Assembly (NCBI GenBank): GCA_045863335.1
Contig: BTVY01000087.1
Span: 1-12,121, forward strand
Origin: Candidatus Hydrogenedentota bacterium
Lineage (GTDB): Bacteria > Hydrogenedentota > Hydrogenedentia > Hydrogenedentales > SLHB01
DNA length: 12,121 bases
Direction: 5' to 3'
The notes below the pieces were generated by a model. It was not told the DNA's origin. It saw nothing but the letters and a program-made list of their open reading frames with translations, and ran no database searches. The position numbers were made by a program, and so were the translations under genes. Positions 97-11,852 of the stretch are shown piece by piece. The first letter of the stretch is position 1. Every line of letters starts with the position of its first letter.

Positions 97-2034
97 CTAC
101 TTGCTTAGTGTGGGAAACTCGGTTATGCGGAGGTTGGTGCATCCGTAGGGGATGAGGGATAGCTCTTCCTGGGGCGAATCGGATTGAACCGAGCTTTGGG
201 GAACGGGTGCGGCGGCGTTGCGGTGGAGGGTCCAGCCGGGTAGTTGGCTTCCTTTGACCGATGCAACGATGGGCGCGCCTTCGGGGGAGAAGGGGTTTGC
301 GCCGAGGGGGCGTTCTTCCACGGTGATGGAACCGGCTGGGTTTTCGGGATCAAGAGCCAGGGCGTAGTTCCACGGAGAGAGCGGGTGGACTTCCCAATCG
401 GCGTGCGGCAGTTCGCCGCGAATCTGGCGCCACTCTTCTTCAATCTTGAGACTCAACACGAGGGGTCCGCGGTGGATGGCGACGCCGGCATTGAAGCGCC
501 GTTCGACGCGTGGATGCATGGGGAAGCGGAGTAAGACGAGGGTTTCTCCCTCCCACTCCCGATCGATGCGATGAAAGGCGCCGGACTTTGGCGAGGCGAC
601 GGTTTCGCCGCCCACTTCGAGTTGCGTGTCTTGCGCCCAGTCAGGGATGCGCAACACGAGCGGGAAGGTCACGGGGCGGTCAACCGTTACGGCGATCGCT
701 ATGGATTCGCGGAAGGGATATTCGGTATCGACGCGGACGGATACTTCCGCATCTCCCAGGCGGGTTTGAATGGAGCATGGCGCGTAGGCCACGGCGGCGA
801 GGCCGTTATCGGGGGTCTTCATCCAGAGGTGAGAAGCGAACTTGGGCCAGCCCTGGTGCATGTTTGAAGTGCAGCATCCGTAGTTGGGTTCGAGGCCGAA
901 GATGTTTGAGTCGGGGCCGTTGGTGGTGTAGACGTTTTCCGGTGCGATGCAGGCGATAACCTGGTTGGCCTGCTGGTCGTACTGATGGGCCCACATGTCG
1001 GGTTTGAAGGTTGCGGGCAGCGCGTTGAAGGCGATGCGTTCCATGCGGTCCGCGAGCGTTGGTTCGCCGAAAGTCGCGATGAGGTATTCGAGGGAGTAGA
1101 GGTATTCGACGACCGCGCAGAGTTCGGTGCCTTGCGAGGGATTCTTCCCGGCGAGATGCTCGTCGCCACTGAAGAGTCCGGTCGCCTGGCCGTGATAGCG
1201 GTCGAGGTTGGCGAGGCCTTCGAATACGGCTTGCTTCGCGGACTCTCCACCACCGAGGCGATAGGACAGGCCGGGCGCCTTGATGCCCATGGCGTTGTTG
1301 ACGACGTGGGTGTCCATGGAGGCCTTGGATCGATCGGTTCGCTCGCGGTAGGGGAAGTTGGTGAAGTGGGCGCGCCAATCGTATCCCTGCCGTGCCAATA
1401 GCGTCGCGACTTCGAAGAGGCGTTCGTCCCCGGTGCGGTCGTAGAGCCAGAGCATTGAAAGGGCGCCGTCCATCCAACGGTGGCGTCCCCACTCGAAGAG
1501 GGGGTCGTCTTCGAGGACATTTCGTAAGGCAGTGGCGTAGCGAAGGAGCGCCAGGATGACGCGGTCGTCGCCGGTGGCTTCGTAGTACTGCGTCATCGCC
1601 TTGACCGTAATGAAGGTGGGCCAGGCGTCGTGGGTATGTTCGGCGGGCTTGCCGCCGCGCTGACCGTGGAGGGGTCCGAGCCAACCGTCTTCGTGTTGGT
1701 GTTCGAGGATGTAGTTCATCCAGCGCTCGGCCTTGGCAATGAGCGCGGGATCGTCGAGGAGATAGGCGAGCGGCACGAGGCCATCGAGCCAATAGGGGCC
1801 GCGCTCCCAGCCTTCGGCGTCGCCGCCGATCCAACCGCTGTCGCGCACGTCCGGCCAGAATTCGTCGAGGTGACCGGTCAGGCCGCCGGCTTGAATGCGC
1901 AGTTGGTTCGCGAGCCATCCTTCGGGTTTGATCGCGCCGAGAGGCAGCGGTTCCAGTGCGAACGGTTCCGGTTGCGCTCCGAACGCTTCCCCGACCATTG
2001 TCAGACTCCACATGATTGCCGCGATGGTTCGCAT
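97..2034 (-). CDS. GH127/GH146-like glycoside hydrolase (beta-L-arabinofuranosidase-like cysteine glycosidase), probably secreted, 645 aa
   Basis: Motifs LPLGAIKPEGWL, WERGPYWLDG, SGDEHL...GTELCAVVE (acid/base Glu plus E-x-C) and NYGCCTSN (CC pair) match the HypBA1-type Zn-Cys3-Glu site. C-terminal TEYPF, LRIPDWA, RGPLV and LIPYG beta-domain motifs. Start moved from 2076 to ATG 2034 because it follows a GCAGGGGA RBS and begins a signal-peptide-like segment (MRTIAAIMWSLTMVGEAFGA). Confidence 0.88.
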   Translation of the reverse strand: MRTIAAIMWSLTMVGEAFGAQPEPFALEPLPLGAIKPEGWLANQLRIQAGGLTGHLDEFWPDVRDSGWIGGDAEGWERGPYWLDGLVPLAYLLDDPALIAKAERWMNYILEHQHEDGWLGPLHGQRGGKPAEHTHDAWPTFITVKAMTQYYEATGDDRVILALLRYATALRNVLEDDPLFEWGRHRWMDGALSMLWLYDRTGDERLFEVATLLARQGYDWRAHFTNFPYRERTDRSKASMDTHVVNNAMGIKAPGLSYRLGGGESAKQAVFEGLANLDRYHGQATGLFSGDEHLAGKNPSQGTELCAVVEYLYSLEYLIATFGEPTLADRMERIAFNALPATFKPDMWAHQYDQQANQVIACIAPENVYTTNGPDSNIFGLEPNYGCCTSNMHQGWPKFASHLWMKTPDNGLAAVAYAPCSIQTRLGDAEVSVRVDTEYPFRESIAIAVTVDRPVTFPLVLRIPDWAQDTQLEVGGETVASPKSGAFHRIDREWEGETLVLLRFPMHPRVERRFNAGVAIHRGPLVLSLKIEEEWRQIRGELPHADWEVHPLSPWNYALALDPENPAGSITVEERPLGANPFSPEGAPIVASVKGSQLPGWTLHRNAAAPVPQSSVQSDSPQEELSLIPYGCTNLRITEFPTLSK

Positions 2035-2090
2035 GGTGTCCCCTGCTTGTTGTGTCCCGGGTGTCGTTGGTGACACCGCCCCCGTTAGGG

Positions 2091-2203
2091 CGATTCTACC
2101 GCAGCGCGAATCGAAAGAGTTAACTCACTTTATCGCGTTTGAGACATTGTTGCGTTAGAATTAGCCGGTTCTATTGTTCGGGAAATTCCCGTCCATAACG
2201 CAA
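2091..2203. promoter_or_regulatory. Divergent promoter region with candidate operator palindromes
   Basis: AT-richer than the flanking genes. Minus-strand TAGAAT (-10-like) at 2093-2098. Plus-strand TTGCGT(2150-2155)-N16-TATTGT(2172-2177). Perfect palindromes GAGTTAACTC (2117-2126) and CGGGAA-A-TTCCCG (2179-2191). Confidence 0.45.
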
Positions 2204-2222
2204 GTAAACCAAGGAAAGACAA

Positions 2223-4379
2223 ATGCAGTATCGAGTTCTCGCGGCAGTGTTGGTTGGGTTTGGTCTTTCGATATGTCACGGTGAGGGGCTGCCCGATCTG
2301 CCAATCGACGTTGGAACGTTTCAGCAAGAGGAGCATCTGCGGTACACGACGGCGCAGGGACTTCCTGGCAGCGTTGTGGATAGGATTGCGATAGACGCTC
2401 AGGGCGATATCCTCGCGGAGACGGTTGAAGGTATCGCGCGGTTCAACGGGGATCGATGGGAGCGGGTGGAAGATGATGCGGTGCAGTTGCCCGCGCTTCC
2501 CGCGCTTACACTGGAACAGGAAGCGAAGCTGCGGGCCGTTGCGGGGAGTGACATTGCGATCCGCGAAGTGGCGATACGCGCTGGGGAAATTGCGGTAGCA
2601 GCGGATTCGGGATTGTATGTTGGTGAGGGAACCGATTGGCGTTTGGCGTTGCCGCGCGAAGGGGAGATTCGTTGGGCCCCGGTGGATGTGCGGGCGGTTG
2701 CGTATGACGCGGACGGAACGCTTTGGTTTGCCGCGCCACAGGGGGTGGGACGACGGGTGTCCGATGATGAATGGGATTTGTTCACCGGGCAAGACGGGCT
2801 TCCGTACAACGATTTTACGTGCATGGCGACAGGACCAGAGGGGGTGTGGTTCGGGACGATGAATGGGGCCATTCACTACCTCGACGGGTACTGGGCGTTC
2901 CGGCAAGGCGGGCGCTGGTTGTTGGACGACCATGTGCGGGATATCGCGGTGGACACCGAGGGGAACGCGTGGATCGCGACGGCGTCAGGGGTGTCGTGTA
3001 TCGCGCGGAAGCCGATGACGCTGGCGAAGAAGGCGGCGTTTTATGAGGAGGAGATCGAGAAGTATCACCGGCGGACGAGCCTCGGGTATGTGTGCCCGGC
3101 GGAACTTGCGGTGCCCGGAGACAAAAGCACGGGGACGCCGGTGTTCACGGATAACGACGGACATTTCAACGGCCTGTACCTCGGCGCGATGAGTCTGGGC
3201 TATAAAGCGACGGGCGATCCCGTGTTGAAAGAGCATGCCCACAGCGCCTTTCGCGCGATGGCTTTCCTCAGCGAGGTAACGCAGGGAGGCACGCATCCGG
3301 CGCCGGAAGGGTTCTTTGCGCGGGCGGTCGTGCCGACGACGGATCCCGATCCGAATCCGGAGTTTGACTTGGAGTATGACATTCGCAGGAACGAACGGGA
3401 TGCGTTGTGGAAGATCATTCAGCCGCGTTTTCCGATCGACGAGACGGGTGACTGGTACTGGAAGAACGATTCGAGTCCGGATGAGTTGGACGGTCATTTC
3501 TTCGGGTATGGCGCGTATTACGACCATGTGAGTGAGACCGAGGCGGAGAAGGAGGCTGTGCGGGAGGTCGTGCGGCGGCTTGTGGACCATATCATCGAGC
3601 ATGACTACAACCTCGTCGACTACGACGGCAAGCCGACGCGGTGGGGTCATTTTTCGCCCGACGATCTGAACCGGAATCCCGAGTGGGTCATGGAACGCGG
3701 GCTGAACTCTTACAGTATCCTGACGTATCTTTCGGTGGCGCATCATGTGACGGGCGATCAGAAGTATCGCGACGAGTATCTGCGATTGGCCTTCGACGAA
3801 GGGTATGGCATGAACGGCATGACGCAGCCCAAGGATATCGCGGGGCCGGGCACCTTTGGCCAGGGCGACGACTACATGGCGTTCATGAACTACTACCATC
3901 TGATCCGGTATGAGACCGATCCGAAGCTGCTGAGCATGTATTACTTCGCGATTCGCCGGCATTGGGAGATGGAGCAATACGAGCGCAATACGTTTGCGAA
4001 CTTCGTCTACGCGGCATGCTGTCAGGGGAAGATTCGGAGCGATCAGTGGGGCGATTCGGATCTTTCGCTTGATCCCGTATACTTTGAGGACGCCATCGAC
4101 ACCTTGAAACGCTATCCGCTCGACCTCGTCGATTGGCCCCACTCGAACGCACACCGGATCGACATGGTTCCGCTGCAGTCGCATTTATGGCAGAGTCCCG
4201 GAAGCGCGGGGCATCGGGTCGATGGATACGTGTTTCCCATTGATGAACGCAATGCGATCAATTGGGGGCGCGATCCCTGGTTTCTCTCGTACGGAGGCAA
4301 GGGAGCGGAGTTGCGGGACAGCATCCATTACCTTGTCGCGTATTACTTGGGGTTGGCGCACGGGTTTATTCAGGGATAG
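2223..4379 (+). CDS. Secreted hypothetical protein, 718 aa: N-terminal two-component-regulator-type (Reg_prop-like) beta-propeller repeats plus a C-terminal helical, putative (alpha/alpha)6 catalytic domain
   Basis: AAGGAA RBS before ATG 2223; signal-peptide-like MQYRVLAAVLVGFGLSICHG. Blade repeats GLPGSVVDRIAIDAQGDILAET, VRAVAYDADGTLWFAAPQGV, GLPYNDFTCMATGPEGVWFGT, LLDDHVRDIAVDTEGNAWIATASGV. Aromatic/acidic-rich C-terminal ~450 aa with YKATGDP and HHVTGDQKY helix-turn motifs typical of six-hairpin glycosidase folds. The ORF is solid; the function is uncertain. Confidence 0.8.
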   Translation: MQYRVLAAVLVGFGLSICHGEGLPDLPIDVGTFQQEEHLRYTTAQGLPGSVVDRIAIDAQGDILAETVEGIARFNGDRWERVEDDAVQLPALPALTLEQEAKLRAVAGSDIAIREVAIRAGEIAVAADSGLYVGEGTDWRLALPREGEIRWAPVDVRAVAYDADGTLWFAAPQGVGRRVSDDEWDLFTGQDGLPYNDFTCMATGPEGVWFGTMNGAIHYLDGYWAFRQGGRWLLDDHVRDIAVDTEGNAWIATASGVSCIARKPMTLAKKAAFYEEEIEKYHRRTSLGYVCPAELAVPGDKSTGTPVFTDNDGHFNGLYLGAMSLGYKATGDPVLKEHAHSAFRAMAFLSEVTQGGTHPAPEGFFARAVVPTTDPDPNPEFDLEYDIRRNERDALWKIIQPRFPIDETGDWYWKNDSSPDELDGHFFGYGAYYDHVSETEAEKEAVREVVRRLVDHIIEHDYNLVDYDGKPTRWGHFSPDDLNRNPEWVMERGLNSYSILTYLSVAHHVTGDQKYRDEYLRLAFDEGYGMNGMTQPKDIAGPGTFGQGDDYMAFMNYYHLIRYETDPKLLSMYYFAIRRHWEMEQYERNTFANFVYAACCQGKIRSDQWGDSDLSLDPVYFEDAIDTLKRYPLDLVDWPHSNAHRIDMVPLQSHLWQSPGSAGHRVDGYVFPIDERNAINWGRDPWFLSYGGKGAELRDSIHYLVAYYLGLAHGFIQG

Positions 4380-4399
4380 CGTTAACAGGGGAGGTATCC

Positions 4400-7009
4400 A
4401 TGTTCTTCGTTGGACGAAAGCGTGTTCGATTTGGCATGCGCTTCGTGTCCATGCTGGCCGCGACACTTGTCGCGGTGATGGCAGGAATCGCCAGTTCGCC
4501 TGAGGAAAGCGGAGATTGGCCCGAGACCATCGAGATACAGCACTGGCCGGGGACGTATTGGTGGGCTCCGGGGAGCGCGTGGCGGGAATCGGACATCGAT
4601 TTCAACTTGACGACCATGGCGGAGGCGGGCATCCGGAACGTGCACATCGTGCCGATTTATGGGGCGAATGGATATGAGGATCGGTACATTCAATATCTCT
4701 CGCCGGAATGGCTGGGGATGCTCGACTATATTGTCGAGAAGGCGCAGGCGCTGGATATGAACGTCGATATGACGACGGGGACGGGCTGGTGCTTTGGGGG
4801 ACCGGGGCTGGAAGGCAACGCGGCGGACACGATCATCGCGCCGAATGAGAATGGCGAGGGGTATACGCTGAAGCCGGGGCGGCAGGTGAAGCGCGCGGCG
4901 CCGGGCGGCGAAGGCATGATGATGAATCCGTATTCGCCGGCGGCGATGGAGCAGTATCTGGAGCGATTCACCGAGGCATTTGATGCCGCGAAACCGGCCA
5001 TGCCGCGGGCGCAGTATCACGATTCTTTCGAGTATCAGGGGAATTGGGCAGCCGAAGTCATTCCGGCGTTCAAAGAACGGCGCGGGTACGATTTGGAGGC
5101 ACGGCTGCCGGAACTGTTCGGTTCGAATACGGACGCGGATACGCTTTCGCGGTTGAAGTATGACTATCGGTTGACGCTTGCGGAACTGCATGGGGAAACG
5201 ATACAGGTCTGGATCGACTGGTGCCGCGCGCGGGGCATGTTGACGCGGGATCAGGCGCACGGGAGTCCGACGAACCTGATCGATATGTATGCGGCCTGCG
5301 ACATTCCGGAGACGGAGATGTTCGGCGCGCCCGAGTATCCGATACCGGGGTTCCGGTTGGACCCGGACATGTCGCGCGAGGGCGATACGGATCTGCGGGT
5401 TTGCATGCTGGCGGCGTCGGCGGCGCATGTGGCGCACGAGCCGGGCAAGCAACTGGTATCGTCGGAGACGTGCACGTGGTTGCGGGAGCATTGGCACACG
5501 AACCTGGGGCAGGTGAAGCTACAGCTGGACCGATTCTTCCTGGCGGGGATCAACCACATCTTCTATCACGGCACCTGCTTCTCGCCGGAGGACGCGCCTT
5601 GGCCGGGCTGGTTTTTCTACGCGTCGACCAAGTTTGATTGGCGCAACTCCATCTGGCGCGACTTCCCGCAGATCAACACCTACGTGGCGCGTTGCCAGTC
5701 GGTGTTGCAGGCCGGGACGCCCGCAAACGACATTTTGCTTTACTGGCCCATCCACGATCTGTGGAGTTCGCCGGAGGGGCTGGACATGCGCATGTCGGTG
5801 CATGGCGCGAAATGGATGTCGGAATCCACGATGGGCGATCTGGCGCAGCGGTTGATGGATCGAGGCTACACCTTCGATTTCATATCGGATGCGTTGATTC
5901 AGAGATTGCAGGTTCGCGATGGGAAATTGCAGGCGCCGGGCGGCGCGTATCGGGCGGTGGTCATTCCGCAGTGCACGTATATGCCGCCGGAGACGCTGAA
6001 GCAACTCGTCGACCTTGCGGAACAAGGCGGGACGGTTTTAATCGAAGGCTCGTTTCCTACCGATGTTCCTGGGTTCGCGCGGCTGGAGGAGCGGCGAGCT
6101 GAACTCGACAAAGAGCGGGACCGCGCGCAGCATTCGGTCTGGTCGGGGCAGGACGCGTTGATCGTGCTGGACGCTTCGGGCCTGCGCCGGGAGCCGATGG
6201 CGGACGAAGGGTTACAGTTTGTGCGGCGGCGCGTGGACGGCGGGTATTACTACTTCATCGTCAATCACACGGCGGAGGCGTTTGATGGATGGCTGCCGTT
6301 GGCGACGTCTTTTGAAACGGCCGTGGTGTTCGATCCCATGACGGGGGCAACAGGAGCGCTTCGTGTTGCGGAAGGCGAAGGCGGGAAATCGATCTATCTG
6401 CAACTCGAACCGGGCGTGTCTACCGTCGTTCGGACTTACGATGCGGCGACGGATACAGCGCCTTGGTCGTACCTGCAGACGGCGGGCGATGCGATTCCGG
6501 TTGAGGGACCGTGGACGCTCGAATTTATTGATGGCGGTCCGGCGCTGCCGCCGTCCGCGACGCTAGAATCACTGGCTTCGTGGACGGAGACGCCGGGTGG
6601 CGCGGCAACGGAGTTCGCCGGCGCAGGACGCTACACCGTACGGGTTGACGTCCCCTCCCCCACTTCCGCCGATGAGTGGATACTGGATTTGGGCGACGTG
6701 CGGGAGAGCGCGCGGGTACACGTGAACGGCAAGGACGCCGGAACGCTGGTGTCGTTGCCGTTCCGTGCGCGGGTTGGGAAGTATCTCCAGGCGGGCGAAA
6801 ACACGATCGAGATCGAGGTGACCAATTTGACGGCCAACCGGATTCGCGCGCTGTCGCAGGAGACGGACGCGTGGAAGGTCATGCGGGAGATCAACATCGT
6901 CACCGTGGATTACACGGAGTTTAAGCCGGAGGAATGGCCGCTGGTGGAGTCGGGATTACTGGGGCCGGTGCGGTTGGTGCCGATGGCGAAAGTGGCGGTT
7001 ATGGAGTGA
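4400..7009 (+). CDS. GH106-like alpha-L-rhamnosidase with C-terminal GH2-type sugar-binding beta-sandwich, probably secreted, 869 aa
   Basis: Motifs PGTYWWAPG, YLSPEW, DMTTGTGWCFGGP, HDSFEY, FKERRGYDL, DIPETE, AASAAH, SSETCTW, GINHIFYHG, and C-terminal LDLGDVRESARVHVNG, GENTIEIEVTN, SGLLGPVRL. Start reassigned from 4262 to ATG 4400, which follows a strong GGGGAGGT RBS (4388-4395) and lies 20 bp after the upstream stop. Basic then hydrophobic N-terminus suggests a signal peptide. Confidence 0.85.
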   Translation: MFFVGRKRVRFGMRFVSMLAATLVAVMAGIASSPEESGDWPETIEIQHWPGTYWWAPGSAWRESDIDFNLTTMAEAGIRNVHIVPIYGANGYEDRYIQYLSPEWLGMLDYIVEKAQALDMNVDMTTGTGWCFGGPGLEGNAADTIIAPNENGEGYTLKPGRQVKRAAPGGEGMMMNPYSPAAMEQYLERFTEAFDAAKPAMPRAQYHDSFEYQGNWAAEVIPAFKERRGYDLEARLPELFGSNTDADTLSRLKYDYRLTLAELHGETIQVWIDWCRARGMLTRDQAHGSPTNLIDMYAACDIPETEMFGAPEYPIPGFRLDPDMSREGDTDLRVCMLAASAAHVAHEPGKQLVSSETCTWLREHWHTNLGQVKLQLDRFFLAGINHIFYHGTCFSPEDAPWPGWFFYASTKFDWRNSIWRDFPQINTYVARCQSVLQAGTPANDILLYWPIHDLWSSPEGLDMRMSVHGAKWMSESTMGDLAQRLMDRGYTFDFISDALIQRLQVRDGKLQAPGGAYRAVVIPQCTYMPPETLKQLVDLAEQGGTVLIEGSFPTDVPGFARLEERRAELDKERDRAQHSVWSGQDALIVLDASGLRREPMADEGLQFVRRRVDGGYYYFIVNHTAEAFDGWLPLATSFETAVVFDPMTGATGALRVAEGEGGKSIYLQLEPGVSTVVRTYDAATDTAPWSYLQTAGDAIPVEGPWTLEFIDGGPALPPSATLESLASWTETPGGAATEFAGAGRYTVRVDVPSPTSADEWILDLGDVRESARVHVNGKDAGTLVSLPFRARVGKYLQAGENTIEIEVTNLTANRIRALSQETDAWKVMREINIVTVDYTEFKPEEWPLVESGLLGPVRLVPMAKVAVME

Positions 7010-7238
7010 TGCGGGTCGGAGGCGGAGGAAGATCATCCGACGCGGATGCTGCAGCAAAAGCGATGGCAGCGCGCACGTCATCCTCGGTTATCGTTGGGTA
7101 ATCTCTCACGATATCCGCGATTGTGTCTCCATCGGCGAGTGATGCGAGTATCGTTTTAATGGTAACCCGAGTCCCGGTAATCACCGGTTGGCCGCCACAT
7201 ATCATTCGATCAGTTGTGATGTGCTTCCCAAAGTTCAT
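6999..7238 (-). CDS. DUF433 family protein (VapB45-like antitoxin / small HTH), 79 aa
   Basis: ITTDRMICGGQPVITGTRVTIKTILASLADGDTIADIVRDYPTITEDDVRAAIAFAA is the characteristic DUF433 pattern. Its 3' end overlaps the convergent GH106 3' end by 11 bp. Confidence 0.92.
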   Translation of the reverse strand: MNFGKHITTDRMICGGQPVITGTRVTIKTILASLADGDTIADIVRDYPTITEDDVRAAIAFAAASASDDLPPPPTRITP

Positions 7239-7296
7239 TGGGTACTTTCCAGCGAGACCGCCGAAGTCATGCGCACTGCACAGGTGTCAATTCCTC

Positions 7297-7305
7297 ATTC
7301 TACCA
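7297..7305 (-). promoter_or_regulatory. Candidate extended -10 promoter (TG-G-TAGAAT) for the DUF433 gene
   Basis: Minus strand reads TGGTAGAAT immediately after the aroK stop and about 60 nt upstream of the DUF433 ATG; fits TGn-TAnnnT. Confidence 0.5.
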
Positions 7306-7309
7306 CTAA

Positions 7310-7819
7310 CTAATCGGAATGTTGGTACTGGATAACGTCCTCCGCGACTTCTTCCGGGGTGAGGGGGTCGGTGTCGATTTCGTGGTGGGCGGAGGCTTGG
7401 TAGATGGGGGTCCGGCGTTCGAGGACTTCGGACACCTCGTCGGTGAAGCTCTTCTGTCCGGTGAGCGAAGGGCGTTCGGTGTCGCCCTGGATGCGGGAGA
7501 CGATGGTGGGGACGGAGGCTTTGAGCCAGAAAATACGTCCGTTCTGGCGGAGGGCTTCGATGTTTTCGGGGCGTTCGATGACGCCGCCGCCGCAGTCGAT
7601 GATGAGGTTGTCGCGGGCGGCGTATTCGCGGGCGACCTCGGTTTCGATGTCGCGGAAGCCGGGCCAGCCGTGCTTCTCCACGATCTCCGGCACGGACATG
7701 CCGGCCTTCTCGATGATGCGCGCGTCCATGCCGACATATTCCATGCCCAAGCGTTGGGCGAGAAGCTTGCCGACTTCCGATTTGCCGGTGCCGCGATAGC
7801 CGATCAACACGATATTCAT
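7310..7819 (-). CDS. aroK: Shikimate kinase, 169 aa
   Basis: MNIVLIGYRGTGKSEVG (Walker A), GWPGFRDIE, DCGGG shikimate-binding motif, lid RPSL, ERRTPIY. True start ATG 7819 overlaps the aroE stop as ATGA (7816-7819). Confidence 0.95.
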   Translation of the reverse strand: MNIVLIGYRGTGKSEVGKLLAQRLGMEYVGMDARIIEKAGMSVPEIVEKHGWPGFRDIETEVAREYAARDNLIIDCGGGVIERPENIEALRQNGRIFWLKASVPTIVSRIQGDTERPSLTGQKSFTDEVSEVLERRTPIYQASAHHEIDTDPLTPEEVAEDVIQYQHSD

Positions 7820-8685
7820 GATTTCAGATTCTCCAGCACGATGTTGCGCATGACTTCGACGGGGGCGTCCACTCCGGTGAACCGTTCGAACTGCAGGACG
7901 GCCTGGTTGACGAACATCTCCACCCCGGGGATGGTCGTCAGACCTTTGGCCTTGGCGTCTTTCAGCAGTTTCGTTTCGAGCGGGTTGTACACGATGTCGA
8001 AGACGACTTGCCCCGCGCGGAAGAGGTCGGGTGGCACGAGGGACGCGTCTTCCTTGGGGTGCATGCCGACGGAGGTGCAATGGATGATAATGTCGGCCTT
8101 GGCCATGGCGGCGGCGAGGGAATCGGGCGTTGAGAGGCTCGCCTGGATGTTGGCCTTCGTGCCCGACTTGAGGTCGGAAGTAAGGCCGTTGAGCAACTCT
8201 TCGTTGATGTCGAGCAAGTTCAGCTCGTTGAGTTTCGTGGTCCACGCGAGCGTGAAAGTAATTGCGCGCGCCGCGCCGCCTGCGCCAATGACGAGCACGT
8301 TCTTACCGTCCACATCGACGCCGTGATCCGTGAGTGACTTTAACGCGCCCGGCCCGTCCGTGCCGAACCCGATCAGTTTGCCGTTCTCGTGTACGACAGT
8401 GTTGATGGCGCCGATGGACCGGTCGACTTCCGCGATTTCGTCGCAGTACTTCATGACCTCCACCTTGTGGGGGATGGTCACGCTCATGCCGCGGAATCCG
8501 TTGAACGCGCGCATGCCGGCCAATGCGCCTTTCACGTCTTCGACCGCGAAGGCGACGTAGACAAAGTCGAGTCCTTTGGCCGCGTAGCCCGCGTTGTGAA
8601 TAGCGGGCGACATGCTGTGGCCGATGGGATTGCCGATGACCGCGCACAATTGGGTCTTCGCGCTGATCGCTGGTGAACCGCTCAT
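7816..8685 (-). CDS. aroE: Shikimate (or quinate/shikimate) dehydrogenase, 289 aa
   Basis: GNPIGHSMSPAIHN, SVTIPHK (catalytic Lys), GAINT, TDG (catalytic Asp), GAGGAARA, DIVYNPLET, GVEMFVNQA. Start ATG 8685 follows an AGGAGGT RBS (8689-8695); the upstream extension in the ORF track runs through repeat DNA. Confidence 0.95.
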   Translation of the reverse strand: MSGSPAISAKTQLCAVIGNPIGHSMSPAIHNAGYAAKGLDFVYVAFAVEDVKGALAGMRAFNGFRGMSVTIPHKVEVMKYCDEIAEVDRSIGAINTVVHENGKLIGFGTDGPGALKSLTDHGVDVDGKNVLVIGAGGAARAITFTLAWTTKLNELNLLDINEELLNGLTSDLKSGTKANIQASLSTPDSLAAAMAKADIIIHCTSVGMHPKEDASLVPPDLFRAGQVVFDIVYNPLETKLLKDAKAKGLTTIPGVEMFVNQAVLQFERFTGVDAPVEVMRNIVLENLKS

Positions 8686-8736
8686 GAAACCTCCTGTTGT
8701 AGGCGTCGCCAATAGTTGTCGGCGGACTGCGAAAGC

Positions 8737-8802
8737 AAATTCGAAATACGAAACTCGAAATACGAAACAAGCACAAATGACCAAAATTCTAATGACCGAA
8801 AC
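8737..8802. repeat. A-rich degenerate 7-bp tandem repeat array
   Basis: AAATTCG AAATACG AAACTCG AAATACG AAAC, then AAGCACA AATGACC AAAATTCT AATGACC GAAAC. Sharply AT-rich against the GC-rich background. Confidence 0.85.
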
Positions 8803-8854
8803 GAGCACCAGGATCCATCGACGGTCGTAGACGGTAGTCGTTGGCTCCGAATCT

Positions 8855-8880
8855 CGCCCGGCATGGAAGCCGGGCGCTAC
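8855..8880 (-). repeat. GTAG-family REP-like palindrome
   Basis: Minus strand reads GTAG-CGCCCGGC-TTCCAT-GCCGGGCG: a GTAG tetranucleotide foot directly followed by a perfect 8-bp GC stem with a 6-nt loop. Single copy in the window. Confidence 0.7.
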
Positions 8881-9059
8881 AATTCGAACTCCCCGTCTCG
8901 GTCGGCCTGCAAATTCGCATCGCGGGCGCGTTACGACGTCGTCGGAGCGCATAGAGTAGCGTGCGGGGCGGGTGCGGCGCAATTCTGTTGTGATTGCAGT
9001 CTTGCTCGTACATCGGGACATGTGCACAATGACGCGGGGTAGTTGGCAAGCGGGGCGGC

Positions 9060-11852
9060 ATGGCACAAGCACCTGACATCATTCGATACCTGCGGCGGTG
9101 TTACGAGTCGGATAATCGTGAGACGTCGATTACGAATCTATTTCACGAGAAGATTCGTCATCGCGTGTTTGTCCGGGATACGGAAGACCTGCTCCGGGGG
9201 ATCTTGAATGAGATTCCGCTGGAGCCCGCGGGCGCCGAGGCGGCGTCCAAGGAGGCGAGTCTTCACCGGAAAGAGAAGTCGCTGGTGTACTGCGCGTTTC
9301 CCATCGTGGGCCCGTCGCCGAAGCACGGTTTGCTGCCCACGCAACTGTGCGCGCCGTTGTTTTTCTATCCGGCGGAGATTGTCGAATCGCCGAAGGGATG
9401 GATGCTGCGGGCGGCGCTGGACCAGCAGCGCGTCAATGTACCCGTGTTGACGGCGCTGGCGGGCGGGGGCGAGATTTCCGAGACGTTTGTGGAAGAGTTG
9501 CTCGCGGAGCTGCCTGCGCCGCCCTTTGAGAAGGACAGCGTCCATCAGTTGATGGGGCTGCTGTCGGACTTTGCGCAGGGAATCGACTTCTGGGGGCTTT
9601 CTGAGTATCCAAATCTGGCGAACGAGCGGCGCGTTCGAGAGGCGATGAATGCGGAACGTCCGGGCGACACCCCTCCCCTCGCCTGTTTGAGTGCCGCGGC
9701 GATGGCACTGATTCCAAACTCACCGGACACGCGGGGCGTGTTGTTCGAGCTAGAGGCAATTGCGAACTCGCCGCGTCTGTCGACGCCGCTGCGGGTGCTC
9801 TTCGGGGAAACGGCGGCGGACGCAACGAGTTCATCCAAGGAACGAACTGACCCGTGTGTGCCGGCCGTGTTGAGTCAGGCGCAAGTGGCGGTGATGGATT
9901 CGGCCTGCACCAATCCGTTGACGCTGGTCATCGGTCCGCCGGGTACGGGGAAGTCGTACACTATCGCGGCGCTGGCGCTGGATCAGTTGAGCAAGGGACG
10001 GTCTGTTGTGGTCGCGTCGCGGATGCATCACGCGATCGAAGTTATCCACGGCAAGATCGAGGACATGCTCGGTCCAACCCAGTGCGTCATTCGGGCGGGC
10101 CGCGAAGAGTCCATGCGCGAGATGAAGAAGTATCTCGAGTTACTTCTTCAAGGTATTCGACCTAGAAAGAGTGATACGCCGATAGCGTCCGATTCGATAC
10201 GGCGTTCGCTTGCGCAAACGGAACGGTTGGCCGGGAAGCTGGAGCGGCGTCTCGAACAATTGAGCGCGTTGGAACAGCGCTGGGGGCTGGTGACGACGCA
10301 ATCGGCGGCCGACGGTTTGTGGAGCCGGTTGCAGCTTGCGTACCTGAACTGGCGCAAGGCTACTCCGGAACCGCTATGGAGTTTAGCGGAGAACTACGAG
10401 CGACTCCTTGACCAGCGAACGGCGCTTACACGGCAATTGCTCCAGGAGCTGATCGCCGAACGTCTCGATACGATGGTGACGAAACACCGGGGCGACCTCA
10501 CCAAACTGCTTCACGCCTTGCGAAGCCGGACGGACCGCAAGAAGGAGAGAATGTTCGGCGAGATCGATCTGGACGTGTTGTTCCGGACTTTTCCGATTTG
10601 GCTCGTAACGATGTCGGAGTTGTCCGAAGTACTCCCGCTAGGTGACGAACTGTTTGACGTGGCGATCATCGACGAAGCGACGCAGTGCGACATGGCGAGT
10701 TGTTTGCCGCTGCTGCAGCGGGCCCGGCGGATCGCCATTGTGGGCGATCCGAATCAGCTTCGGCATGTATCGTTCTTGTCGAGGGAGCGTCAGCGACTGG
10801 CCGCGGAGGAGTTCGGACTTGACGATGCGCAGCAGGGGGCTTTCGCGTACCGGGATAAGAGCGTGCTGGATCTCGTGAACGAGTCCATCGGCTCGCAGAA
10901 GAGCGTGATGTTTCTGGACGAGCATTTCCGCAGCCTGCCGCAGATCATTGCCTTCAGCAACCGCGAGTTTTACGCGGACGCGTTGCGCGTCATGACGCGA
11001 CGGCCAGAGACGACGGGTTTGCGGGCGATAGAACTGCGCCGGGTGCAGGGCTCGCGGAATGAGCAGGGGGTGAACCGCGCGGAGGCCGACGCGCTGGTTG
11101 AAGAGGTTCTGCGGCGGATGGAACGGGAAGCCGGACTTTCGGGGACGGCTTCCTCCATCGGAATTCTGAGTCCGTTTCGCGATCAGGTGGATCACTTGCT
11201 GGCTCGGATTGAGAAGGCGGTCTCGTTGGATGCGTTGAGGAAGCACGACATCCTCGTCGGTACCGCGCACACGTTTCAGGGCGAGGAGCGCGATGTGATG
11301 TATTTGTCGCTGGTGGTCGATCCGGCATCTCACGCGGCGACGTTCCGGTTTCTGAACAATCCGAATGTGTTTAACGTGGCGGTGACGCGCGCGAGGAACT
11401 ATCAGTACGTGTTCTGTTCGGTGGATGCGGAATCTCTCGAGGGGGATTCGCTGCTTCGCCGGTATTTACAACATGCTGAAGCGGCTCCGGGGGCGACGGT
11501 AGCGTCGAGGGATGCGGTAGATGATGCGTATCTCGCCGAAGTGTGTAGCGCGCTGGAGTCGGCAGGAGTGCAGGTGTTGCCGTCATATGTGGTCGCCGGA
11601 ATGAAGATCGATCTCGTGGCTTCGCGGGACGAGCGATCGATTGGGATCGATCTCATTGGGTATCCGGGAGCGCTGGCGGCGGCGTTTGCGCTGGACCGGT
11701 ATCGGGTGTTTCAGCGCGCGGGGCTTGCGTTGTTTCCGCTGCCGTATTCGGCGTGGTTGGAGCGGCGGGATGAGTGCGTTGCGGGGATATTGGGGTGGTT
11801 GGGGGCGCGGCAAGCGGGTTGCGCTGTGCGCGAGCGCACAAATCTCCAATGA
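9060..11852 (+). CDS. Superfamily 1 (Upf1/DNA2/NAM7-like, AAA_11/AAA_12) helicase with DUF4011-like N-terminus and C-terminal Vsr/MTES_1575-like restriction-endonuclease-fold domain, 930 aa
   Basis: Q-motif LSQAQ, Walker A GPPGTGKS (9933-9956), Walker B FDVAIIDEATQ (DE at 10671-10676), VGDPNQL, LDEHFRS, IGILSPFRDQ, GTAHTFQGEERD, FNVAVTRAR. Helical/coiled insert between motifs I and II. C-terminal VCSALESAG...YVVAGMKIDLV...IGIDLIG...RAGLALFPL..SAW. Confidence 0.88.
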   Translation: MAQAPDIIRYLRRCYESDNRETSITNLFHEKIRHRVFVRDTEDLLRGILNEIPLEPAGAEAASKEASLHRKEKSLVYCAFPIVGPSPKHGLLPTQLCAPLFFYPAEIVESPKGWMLRAALDQQRVNVPVLTALAGGGEISETFVEELLAELPAPPFEKDSVHQLMGLLSDFAQGIDFWGLSEYPNLANERRVREAMNAERPGDTPPLACLSAAAMALIPNSPDTRGVLFELEAIANSPRLSTPLRVLFGETAADATSSSKERTDPCVPAVLSQAQVAVMDSACTNPLTLVIGPPGTGKSYTIAALALDQLSKGRSVVVASRMHHAIEVIHGKIEDMLGPTQCVIRAGREESMREMKKYLELLLQGIRPRKSDTPIASDSIRRSLAQTERLAGKLERRLEQLSALEQRWGLVTTQSAADGLWSRLQLAYLNWRKATPEPLWSLAENYERLLDQRTALTRQLLQELIAERLDTMVTKHRGDLTKLLHALRSRTDRKKERMFGEIDLDVLFRTFPIWLVTMSELSEVLPLGDELFDVAIIDEATQCDMASCLPLLQRARRIAIVGDPNQLRHVSFLSRERQRLAAEEFGLDDAQQGAFAYRDKSVLDLVNESIGSQKSVMFLDEHFRSLPQIIAFSNREFYADALRVMTRRPETTGLRAIELRRVQGSRNEQGVNRAEADALVEEVLRRMEREAGLSGTASSIGILSPFRDQVDHLLARIEKAVSLDALRKHDILVGTAHTFQGEERDVMYLSLVVDPASHAATFRFLNNPNVFNVAVTRARNYQYVFCSVDAESLEGDSLLRRYLQHAEAAPGATVASRDAVDDAYLAEVCSALESAGVQVLPSYVVAGMKIDLVASRDERSIGIDLIGYPGALAAAFALDRYRVFQRAGLALFPLPYSAWLERRDECVAGILGWLGARQAGCAVRERTNLQ

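Follow-up and report, generated by a model that had tools for sequence, protein, structure and literature searches.

A Putatively Exported Reg_prop Propeller Protein with a Predicted Six-Hairpin-Type Barrel from a Hydrogenedentota Bacterium, Candidate Member of a New Glycan-Active Enzyme Family

A Two-Domain Protein without a Named Family

The stretch of DNA analyzed here (called the window; 12,121 bp, approximately 60% G+C, contig BTVY01000087.1 of a Candidatus Hydrogenedentota bacterium) contains, in a single open frame of 718 codons plus stop, the gene of a probably secreted two-domain protein (P0001, in the following the target; Table 1), whose ATG is preceded by the ribosome-binding-like stretch AGGAAAG. 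The reading we favor, at a probability of roughly 0.55, is that this protein leaves the cytoplasm and acts on glycans as an enzyme, a glycoside hydrolase (GH) being the likeliest kind, and that it belongs to a family of the six-hairpin superfamily which carries no name in Pfam, NCBIfam, or the PDB. The family is placed as unnamed because none of these databases (a 2025 copy of Pfam, NCBIfam of June 2026, PDB of 2026) assigned the C-terminal domain to a named family by sequence, profile, or fold, and judged by this comparison the protein can credibly be put forward as candidate for a CAZy family of its own. Residue conservation was scored in two sets of relatives, namely 39 close homologs (58–92% identity) and 58 diverse sequences (32–76% identity).

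The N-terminus carries the only 19-residue Kyte-Doolittle window of the target above 1.6, which begins at residue 5, and the full-length AlphaFold2 (AF2) model (39-sequence alignment; predicted local distance difference test score, pLDDT, 89.8; predicted template modeling score, pTM, 0.89) contains a helix at residues 2–17, with pLDDT values below 50 at residues 14–21. Both observations are in line with the signal peptide proposed in the initial annotation, and as far as can be judged from its sequence the protein is probably exported. A Kyte-Doolittle scan found no second hydrophobic segment after residue 23.

The sole Pfam match of the target is to Reg_prop, in the N-terminal third (E 4.9e-11; its 41.9 bits exceed the cut-off of 20.4). 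DSSP analysis of the AF2 model assigned 21 strands to residues 33–265, which form five four-stranded blades, about as many as had been suspected from the sequence at approximately positions 2340–3010; the N-terminal strand 33–41 completes the last blade, and a helix is inserted at residues 97–107. In both sequence and fold, significant matches of this part of the protein were limited to sensor propellers from hybrid two-component systems (HTCS): sequence searches of the PDB returned nothing else (3v9f at E 6.5e-9, and 4a2l), Foldseek with the full-length model retrieved HTCS sensor domains at E values around 1e-8, and NCBIfam gave only a weak PorZ match, likewise on the propeller. Reg_prop repeats are shared with the periplasmic HTCS sensor domains of the Bacteroides proteins BT4663 (4a2l/4a2m), BT3049 (3v9f), and BT4673 (3ott/3va6), which however contain two propellers in chains of approximately 750–800 residues, compared to the single propeller of about five blades in the target. 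Full-length HTCS proteins continue with Y_Y_Y, a membrane helix, kinase, receiver, and AraC output domains. None of these (Y_Y_Y, transmembrane (TM) helix, HisKA/HATPase, receiver, or HTH_AraC and other helix-turn-helix domains) was found in the target by Pfam, NCBIfam, or hydropathy, and the protein ends at residue 718 within the barrel. Since Y_Y_Y, TM helix, kinase, receiver, and DNA-binding domain are all absent, the protein is not a sensor kinase, as had also been concluded in the initial annotation.

Within the propeller, the stretch RQGxRWL (residues 227–233, nucleotides 2901–2921) is invariant in the 39 close homologs, and its core RxGxRWL persists in the consensus of the 58 diverse sequences. 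This conservation is unusually strong for a supposedly accessory module, and the residues may contact the active face of the barrel.

The C-Terminal Domain Is Predicted to Adopt a Six-Hairpin Fold

The C-terminal domain was modeled and searched separately, because propeller matches swamped the full-length Foldseek search. Modeled alone with AF2 from the 58-sequence alignment (pLDDT 95.3, pTM 0.94), it forms an all-helical repeat of helix pairs. All top 50 PDB matches listed by Foldseek are six-hairpin (alpha/alpha)6 proteins, namely members of GH76 (6shd, 4c1s), GH9 (6dht, 3h7l, 6gdt, 5dgr), GH88 (3wiw, 3ani), GH146 (6yqh), and the cellobiose 2-epimerase/AGE/YihS group. The lowest E value was obtained for GH76 (2.3e-4) and the highest target-normalized template modeling (TM) score for the GH88 entry 3wiw (0.52); identities to these six-hairpin relatives range from 9 to 14% at E values of 2e-4 to 7e-3. 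Searches of Pfam at E ≤ 1 with the 58 diverse members gave weak echoes of the same clan, with GH127_cat in 6/58 (best E 0.0022), C5-epim_C in 4/58, and GH76 in 1/58 (E 0.0037), and no other match of relevance. Because the Foldseek matches and these echoes point the same way, the six-hairpin class that had been guessed for the unassigned domain appears well founded.

No close solved or modeled family was found for this domain, either by sequence or with the predicted structure. The domain of the target and four short relatives had no match in Pfam even at E ≤ 10, NCBIfam gave none, and phmmer as well as a 23-sequence profile retrieved only propellers from the PDB, which agrees with the initial annotation, in which the domain could not be placed in a named CAZy family. 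In the ESM Atlas the nearest clusters are unnamed; the sole named lead, PcRGLX_3rd, scored 0.78–0.79, which lies under the lead threshold. A search for PcRGLX in open-access papers and bioRxiv found none, and searches of the same sources met no description of a propeller followed by a six-hairpin domain except for the PgSGL4 group discussed below.

Conserved Residues and a Proposed Mechanism

The domain is rich in acidic (D+E 15.6%) and, as had been noted, in aromatic residues (W+Y 9.5%). The three acidic motifs singled out in the initial annotation, TDNDG, the DE pair, and GDDYMAF, lie to the base where they had been placed (Table 1), and they proved to rank among the best conserved positions of the family. 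Invariant among the 39 close homologs are D310, N311, D312, and G313; D416, S418, D420, E421, L422, D423, and G424; R473 and W474; D550; H644, R645, and D647; and D674 and E675. For D549 the count comes from the diverse set, in which it is kept in 52/58 sequences, compared to 56/58 for D312. In that set the WKNDSSPDELDGH motif retains S418 and E421 in all 58 sequences, D420 in 57, W413 and D416 in 56, and K414 and H425 in 55, and its residues are prime candidates for a catalytic acid or base. No alignment column holds Cys in at least 20 of the 58 sequences.

According to DSSP, the helix pairs are joined by turns of 2–4 residues (330/333, 435/440, 510/513, 563/567), and the conserved residues all sit either in the long loops after helix pairs or where the helix that comes next makes its first turn. 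In six-hairpin enzymes this layout corresponds to a single catalytic face. From the topology of the model, the conserved carboxylates are expected to share one face of the barrel as well.

On this basis the following mechanism can be proposed. A signal peptide would direct the protein out of the cytoplasm, and the active site would lie in the C-terminal barrel, on the face of the long inter-hairpin loops. There, the aromatic residues W413, W474, and Y528 would stack on the sugar, the roles of general acid and general base would fall to two carboxylates among E421/D420, D312/D310, and D549, and the substrate would be kept in place by R367, K414, H425, N642, R645, D647, and E675. The DxDG-like turns D310-N-D312-G and D466-Y-D468-G, the latter in the DYDGKPTRW hairpin, may hold a metal ion, making hairpin and DNDG a possible metal site. 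The five-bladed propeller would form one unit with the barrel, and by analogy with HTCS propellers, which bind oligosaccharides, it would probably extend or cap the substrate site.

A Large Family with Recurrent Fusions to Glycosidases

A word-indexed search found 1368 relatives among 8000 scored candidates, the best 120 of which share 58–92% identity with the target and are mostly about 706–744 residues long (range 667–1239). An exhaustive search with the C-terminal domain yielded 1392 clusters at 50% identity (E ≤ 1e-3), 312 of them at E ≤ 1e-30. In the relatives the domain is almost always C-terminal, following approximately 250–350 residues. The approximately 240 relatives listed by name are called only hypothetical protein, two-component regulator propeller, ligand-binding sensor domain-containing protein, or transcriptional regulator.

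The 79 genomic loci that were collected stem mostly from metagenome-assembled genomes (MAGs) of Hydrogenedentota and Planctomycetota, with further members in KSB1, Calditrichota, Omnitrophota, Verrucomicrobiota, and Armatimonadota; with a second search the range widened to Fimbriimonadales, Acidobacteriota, and Sumerlaeota. Eight MAGs contain two or three family copies on separate contigs (e.g., Co_bin.7 with L041, L051, and L077), and locus L069 contains a tandem pair (7920–10259 and 10299–12737, both on the + strand). Several copies per genome are usual for CAZyme families.

Four distinct clusters of 1638–1662 residues combine a complete GH20 hexosaminidase (GH20, GH20b, and CHB_HEX_C) with a target-type module. 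One of these fusions, P0133, aligns to target residues 122–716 at 45% identity, and since this alignment spans both domains, propeller and barrel appear to move together. Fusions to GH16, BNR_2, a metallophosphatase, and a PDZ domain were found once each, and no output or TM domain was present in 23 diverse relatives scanned. Relatives of 555–610 residues without a Reg_prop match in Pfam exist. A candidate for a stand-alone barrel, P0230 (420 residues), was rejected as a probable fragment; its contig measures 2.7 kb, and its close relatives have 686–697 residues and a propeller.

Some irregularities were noted among the loci. The closest orthologs, L001 (93%) and L002 (92%), come from MAGs labeled Hydrogenedentota and “uncultured Nitrospiraceae,” respectively, and labels such as “Nitrospirales” and “Cytophagia” recur among otherwise Hydrogenedentota-like loci, which suggests binning or labeling errors, or recent transfer. 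In the Omnitrophota loci L049 (8001–11116) and L056 (7190–10298), the tblastn match extends over approximately 3.1 kb for only about 590–690 query residues, which points to either an insertion or frameshift or to another copy next to the first.

Comparison with Known Systems

The predicted fold of residues 267–718 resembles that of the six-hairpin glycosidases GH76, GH9, GH88, and GH146, in which conserved carboxylates likewise occupy the starts of alternate helices and long loops. The target differs from them by its fused N-terminal Reg_prop propeller and by the low identity given above. GH76 enzymes use a catalytic Asp-Asp pair (PDB entry titles name D136/D137 variants), and the adjacent pair D549-D550 of the target would be a candidate counterpart. 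Membership in GH76 was dismissed, as PF03663 gave no match for the target at E ≤ 10 and matched only the single diverse member mentioned above, and the Foldseek TM scores lie at 0.30–0.37.

GH127 and GH146 (DUF1680) also share the six-hairpin fold, and the GH146 entry 6yqh shows the highest identity among the Foldseek matches listed (14%). GH127 enzymes work with a Cys nucleophile and a Cys/Glu zinc site. Since the target family has no conserved Cys column, this Cys/Zn center is absent from it. Membership in GH127 or GH146 was also rejected on the grounds of the few Pfam matches (6/58, at E ≥ 0.002) and of an hhalign comparison of the family profile with the GH127-like protein of the window (P0002), which gave a probability of 0.2%.

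The closest architecture in print is that of PgSGL4, the Group 4 protein of the beta-1,2-glucanase clan, which consists of a signal peptide, a six-bladed propeller (residues 43–344), and an (alpha/alpha)6 barrel (345–739), i.e., the same overall plan as the target (PMC12102758). It was identified with GH144-like sequences as BLASTP queries, its relatives occur in Planctomycetota and Phycisphaerae, and its function remained unknown after assays (PMC12102758). Group 4 is given there as 20 homologs, compared to 1392 clusters for the target family. The PgSGL4 group was not accepted as identical with the target family: the Group 4 sequences printed in the supplement, compared by eye only, are without DNDG, WKxDxSxDELDGH, and DxDGxPTRW. 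GH144 had no Pfam match in any of the 58 members and no profile match in the PDB, and structures of GH144, GH162, and GH189 are not among the Foldseek top 50. The triad of this SGL clan is Glu/Phe/Tyr; in the target family E421 and Y528 are invariant and position 477 is aromatic (W in 24, F in 22, and Y in 7 of 58), as putative counterparts at most.

A secreted protein of comparable plan is BT1020 from the rhamnogalacturonan II locus of B. thetaiotaomicron, which is reported to join a GH143 propeller to a GH142 (alpha/alpha)6 barrel and which, like the target in its window, reportedly occurs next to pectin-type neighbors (here the GH127-like and GH106-like genes). Both domains of BT1020 are reportedly catalytic, and neither is reported to be of the Reg_prop type. 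Membership in GH142/GH143 was discarded, as there was no sequence or profile match in the PDB and BT1020 is absent from the Foldseek top 50 of both models.

Gene Neighborhood Across Loci

With a crude open reading frame (ORF) caller, which also produced some spurious ORFs, the target ORF was recovered in 71 of the 79 loci. Neighboring ORFs were scanned against Pfam at 1e-5, 1e-8, or 1e-10, re-cut by hand to 1e-10, and counted against a strict glycan-degrading set (GH, polysaccharide lyase, sulfatase, BNR_2, NAGPA, and YdjC Pfams, E ≤ 1e-10). Members of this set make up 15/129 of the adjacent (±1) and 7/113 of the next-but-one (±2) ORFs, compared to 6/150 of distal ORFs (at least four genes away; a random 150 of 299). 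The enrichment of adjacent over distal ORFs (odds ratio 3.2, p = 0.022) is only modest support, because the loci do not count as independent observations, ORFs were called crudely, and the thresholds differed.

The glycan-type neighbors comprise a Melibiase (L006), sulfatases (L024, L030, L031, L037, L078), BNR_2 (L014, L024, L062, L067) and NAGPA proteins (L070, L076), YdjC together with GH38 (L073), GH109 (L078), GH123 with DUF6259 (L027), GH78 (L052), and a GH140-like apiosidase (L077). In L008 (30–1439) and L009 (342–2384), KduI followed by a PfkB kinase lies on the same strand directly upstream of the family member; this pair is a small uronate-catabolism cassette. Overall, the hints on the substrate favor complex heteroglycans over one polymer, be they hexosamine-containing, sulfated, or rhamnose- and uronate-containing.

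A conserved GH127/GH106 context was considered and rejected: among the ±1 and ±2 neighbors in the 71 loci, the GH127-like gene was met in L001 and L002 alone, and the GH106 gene in L001 alone. In L002, a Ser/Thr protein kinase fused to TIR_2 (7603–9240, − strand) stands in place of the latter. Of the initial interpretation, the parts concerning fold, conservation, and the lack of a named family were upheld, whereas the two neighboring glycosidase genes, which had been adduced in its favor, lose some of their weight, as this arrangement is gone in all examined loci more distant than L001 and L002.

Alternative Explanations

Several points weigh against a glycan-active enzyme of the six-hairpin type. 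The structural similarity is weak, as only five Foldseek matches reach E ≤ 1e-3 and TM scores of 0.25–0.52 come with root mean square deviations of 8–15 Å, and the same fold also serves sugar epimerases, isomerases, lyases, and non-glycan enzymes. The convergence of the carboxylates is a prediction from topology, and the ten conserved acidic residues are more than a plain hydrolase needs. Regarding the neighborhood, the pooled ±1 and ±2 ORFs do not differ significantly from distal ones (22/242 vs. 6/150; odds ratio 2.4, p = 0.069), orthologous pairs occur among the loci (L001/L002, L070/L076, L014/L024, L015/L019), and the context is not conserved, most neighbors being unrelated proteins, among them sigma factors, kinases, transporters, and redox enzymes.

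Among the other explanations, it seems unlikely that the protein acts on uronate glycans, either as a polysaccharide lyase or as an unsaturated-uronyl hydrolase of the GH88/GH105 type. Such an enzyme would rely on a single Asp to hydrate the C4=C5 bond, or on a Tyr/His pair for beta-elimination, with Arg and Asn holding the carboxylate, and suitable residues are indeed kept in the diverse set (Y528 58/58, H425 55/58, R367 57/58, R645 57/58, N642 56/58). The best target-normalized TM score, that of 3wiw, belongs to an unsaturated glucuronyl hydrolase, with 3ani also listed, the weak, sub-threshold ESM Atlas lead points to the alpha/alpha toroid of a rhamnogalacturonan exo-lyase, KduI and PfkB consume unsaturated monouronate, and the GH106-like neighbor resembles the BT4145-type rhamnosidase, which acts on rhamnogalacturonan I. 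However, neither Glyco_hydro_88 nor any GH105 or lyase model of Pfam matches any of the 58 members at E ≤ 1, so that the relation to GH88 is one of fold likeness only and membership in GH88/GH105 was set aside; the GH88 match (E 3.8e-3) is weaker than those to GH76 or GH9, the KduI/PfkB pair occurs in only 2 of the 71 loci, these two being probably orthologous, and ten conserved acidic residues would be unexpected around an anionic substrate unless it is metal-bridged. Partly overlapping with the other alternatives, the domain might already belong to a recent CAZy family for which no Pfam model or solved structure exists, and the present result would reflect a mere annotation gap. CAZy gains families every year, but the lack of any match in Pfam, NCBIfam, and PDB, the generic names of all the listed relatives, and the outcome of searches in the open-access literature, where such an architecture was met only in the apparently unrelated PgSGL4 group, make this rather improbable.

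A distinctly unlikely explanation is a non-catalytic glycan binder or sensor of the periplasm or cell surface, whose propeller and barrel would together bind an oligosaccharide and hand on either signal or ligand, for instance with a sigma/anti-sigma pair, a kinase, or a transporter as the receiving partner. The sensing role of this propeller type in HTCS and the database labels of the relatives as sensor domain proteins or regulators are in accordance with it, as are extracytoplasmic function (ECF) sigma factors adjoining the gene in L015 and L019 and response regulators or histidine kinases within two genes of it in L029 and L044. PgSGL4, which has the same architecture but comes from another six-hairpin group, was inactive on the substrates tried (PMC12102758). 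These regulatory neighbors are nevertheless confined to a handful of loci, the recurrent fusions are to glycosidases and not to signaling domains, output and TM domains are lacking in the target and in the 23 diverse relatives, and the conservation on the loop face of the barrel is enzyme-like (carboxylates, His, Tyr, and Arg, with E421 and Y528 in 58/58). Least probable, and in our view very much so, is that the protein epimerizes or isomerizes a free oligosaccharide in the manner of AGE, cellobiose 2-epimerase, or YihS. Many of the Foldseek matches listed are to such proteins (TM scores 0.40–0.49), and C5-epim_C, the weakly matched domain of four members, is the C-terminal domain of D-glucuronyl C5-epimerase. 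AGE-type enzymes work in the cytoplasm with a His/His or His/Glu pair, whereas the target appears to be exported and its conserved set consists mostly of Asp and Glu; in addition, members of the family are fused to exo-glycosidases, and GlcNAc_2-epim of Pfam is absent from 58/58 members at E ≤ 1.

Returning to the glycan-active enzyme as the favored explanation, a more far-reaching form of it can be put forward tentatively. The target would then be the founding type of a very large new CAZy family, in which a sensor propeller was permanently recruited to build a composite active site and in which an acid-rich site, conserved at 58–70% identity across Hydrogenedentota, Planctomycetota, Calditrichota, KSB1, and others, serves to attack a cationic or metal-bridged glycan. 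Examples would be de-N-acetylated hexosamine polymers or sulfated, uronate-rich heteroglycans. A composite site for glycans of this kind would explain the GH20 fusions as well as the GH20b, GH109, GH123, NAGPA, YdjC, and sulfatase neighbors.

Gene Layout of the Window

As had been described, a GH127 gene lies divergent to the target and a GH106 gene 20 nt downstream of it (Table 1). The likely ATG of the GH106-like gene is at position 4400, preceded by GGGGAGG, and no terminator-like site was found between the two genes, which lie on the same strand; with the 20-nt gap between them they are probably co-transcribed. No site resembling the sigma-70 consensus was found in 1900–7400, a consensus that is weakly informative for this phylum. 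Against the BT4145-type model of NCBIfam the GH106-like protein scored 818 bits, under the cut-off of 1300. P0002 matches the catalytic and middle domains of GH127 in Pfam (E 7e-20 and 2e-16), and its sole NCBIfam match, to aceric acid hydrolase, is partial and reaches 53 bits where the cut-off is 950. It retains TELCA and GCC stretches, which we take to be the Glu/Cys zinc and nucleophile motifs known from GH127 HypBA1.

Farther downstream, aroK and aroE are arranged tail to head. Their mechanically called ORFs have N-terminal extensions of approximately 135–140 residues beyond the Pfam domains, and because of these extensions the true starts are probably located well downstream; an ORF at 7319–8326 (+) is a shadow frame antisense to both genes. 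The product of the last gene (9060–11852) shows a weak nuclease-like REase_MTES_1575 match at its C-terminus (22.4 bits, under the cut-off of 38.2) and partial NCBIfam matches below cut-off to the anti-phage proteins ProA, Hhe, and PLuB helicase, and may be a defense-type helicase-nuclease. GC skew is positive in all 1-kb windows (0.07–0.26), though genes occupy both strands.

Table 1. Features of the window, with positions in the window and counts out of 58 diverse sequences where given.
Feature	Position	Strand	Remarks
Target gene, P0001	2223–4379	+	Single open frame, stop at 4377–4379
Probable Sec signal peptide, about residues 1–21	2223–2285	+	MQYR, hydrophobic core, then CHG/EG; cleavage site judged by eye
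Reg_prop-type beta-propeller, residues 33–265	2319–3017	+	PF07494; 3v9f and 4a2l; Foldseek E 1e-8; DSSP
Predicted (alpha/alpha)6 six-hairpin-type barrel, residues 267–718	3021–4376	+	AF2; Foldseek; no Pfam match
TDNDG, residues 309–313	3147–3161	+	Before barrel helix 312–330; D310 54/58, N311 55/56 non-gap, D312 56/58
R367	3321–3323	+	Long loop after helix 333–351; 57/58
WKNDSSPDELDGH motif, from W413	3459–3497	+	Runs into helix 419–435; D420-E421 at 3480–3485
DYDGKPTRW hairpin	3618–3644	+	After helix 440–459; D466 54, D468 53, T472 58, W474 54 of 58
Y528	3804–3806	+	Loop after helix 513–525; 58/58
GDDYMAF, residues 548–554	3864–3884	+	Start of helix 547–563; D549 52/58, D550 45/58
NAHRID	4146–4163	+	Long loop after helix 618–630; N642 56, R645 57, D647 57 of 58
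E675	4245–4247	+	54/58
GH127-like six-hairpin glycosidase gene, P0002	97–2076	−	Probable ATG 2034; PF07944 and PF20736; PDB 4qjy E 5e-15
Divergent intergenic region between GH127-like gene and target	2035–2222		No sigma-70-like site
GH106 alpha-L-rhamnosidase-like gene	4400–7009	+	Probably co-transcribed with target; 20-nt gap from target stop; PF17132 E 4.9e-48; PDB 5mqm E 3.5e-39
aroK (shikimate kinase) and aroE (shikimate dehydrogenase)	7310–9072	−	Tail to head
SF1 helicase gene, putative helicase-nuclease	9060–11852	+	930 residues; AAA_11/AAA_12

Implications

Among the major degraders of complex glycans in sediments, soils, and reactors are the Hydrogenedentota, Planctomycetota, Armatimonadota, and Acidobacteriota, which are poorly understood in this role. 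A secreted family of 1392 clusters that is annotated as hypothetical protein, propeller, or regulator represents a sizeable blind spot when the genomes of such organisms are read by their CAZymes. If the protein is only a binder, many of the “regulator” annotations would still be in need of correction. If it is an enzyme, it would add a new family, probably with a new specificity, in which a sensor propeller has been reused as part of an enzyme, and the observed conservation offers clear targets for mutation in E421, D420, D312, and D549.

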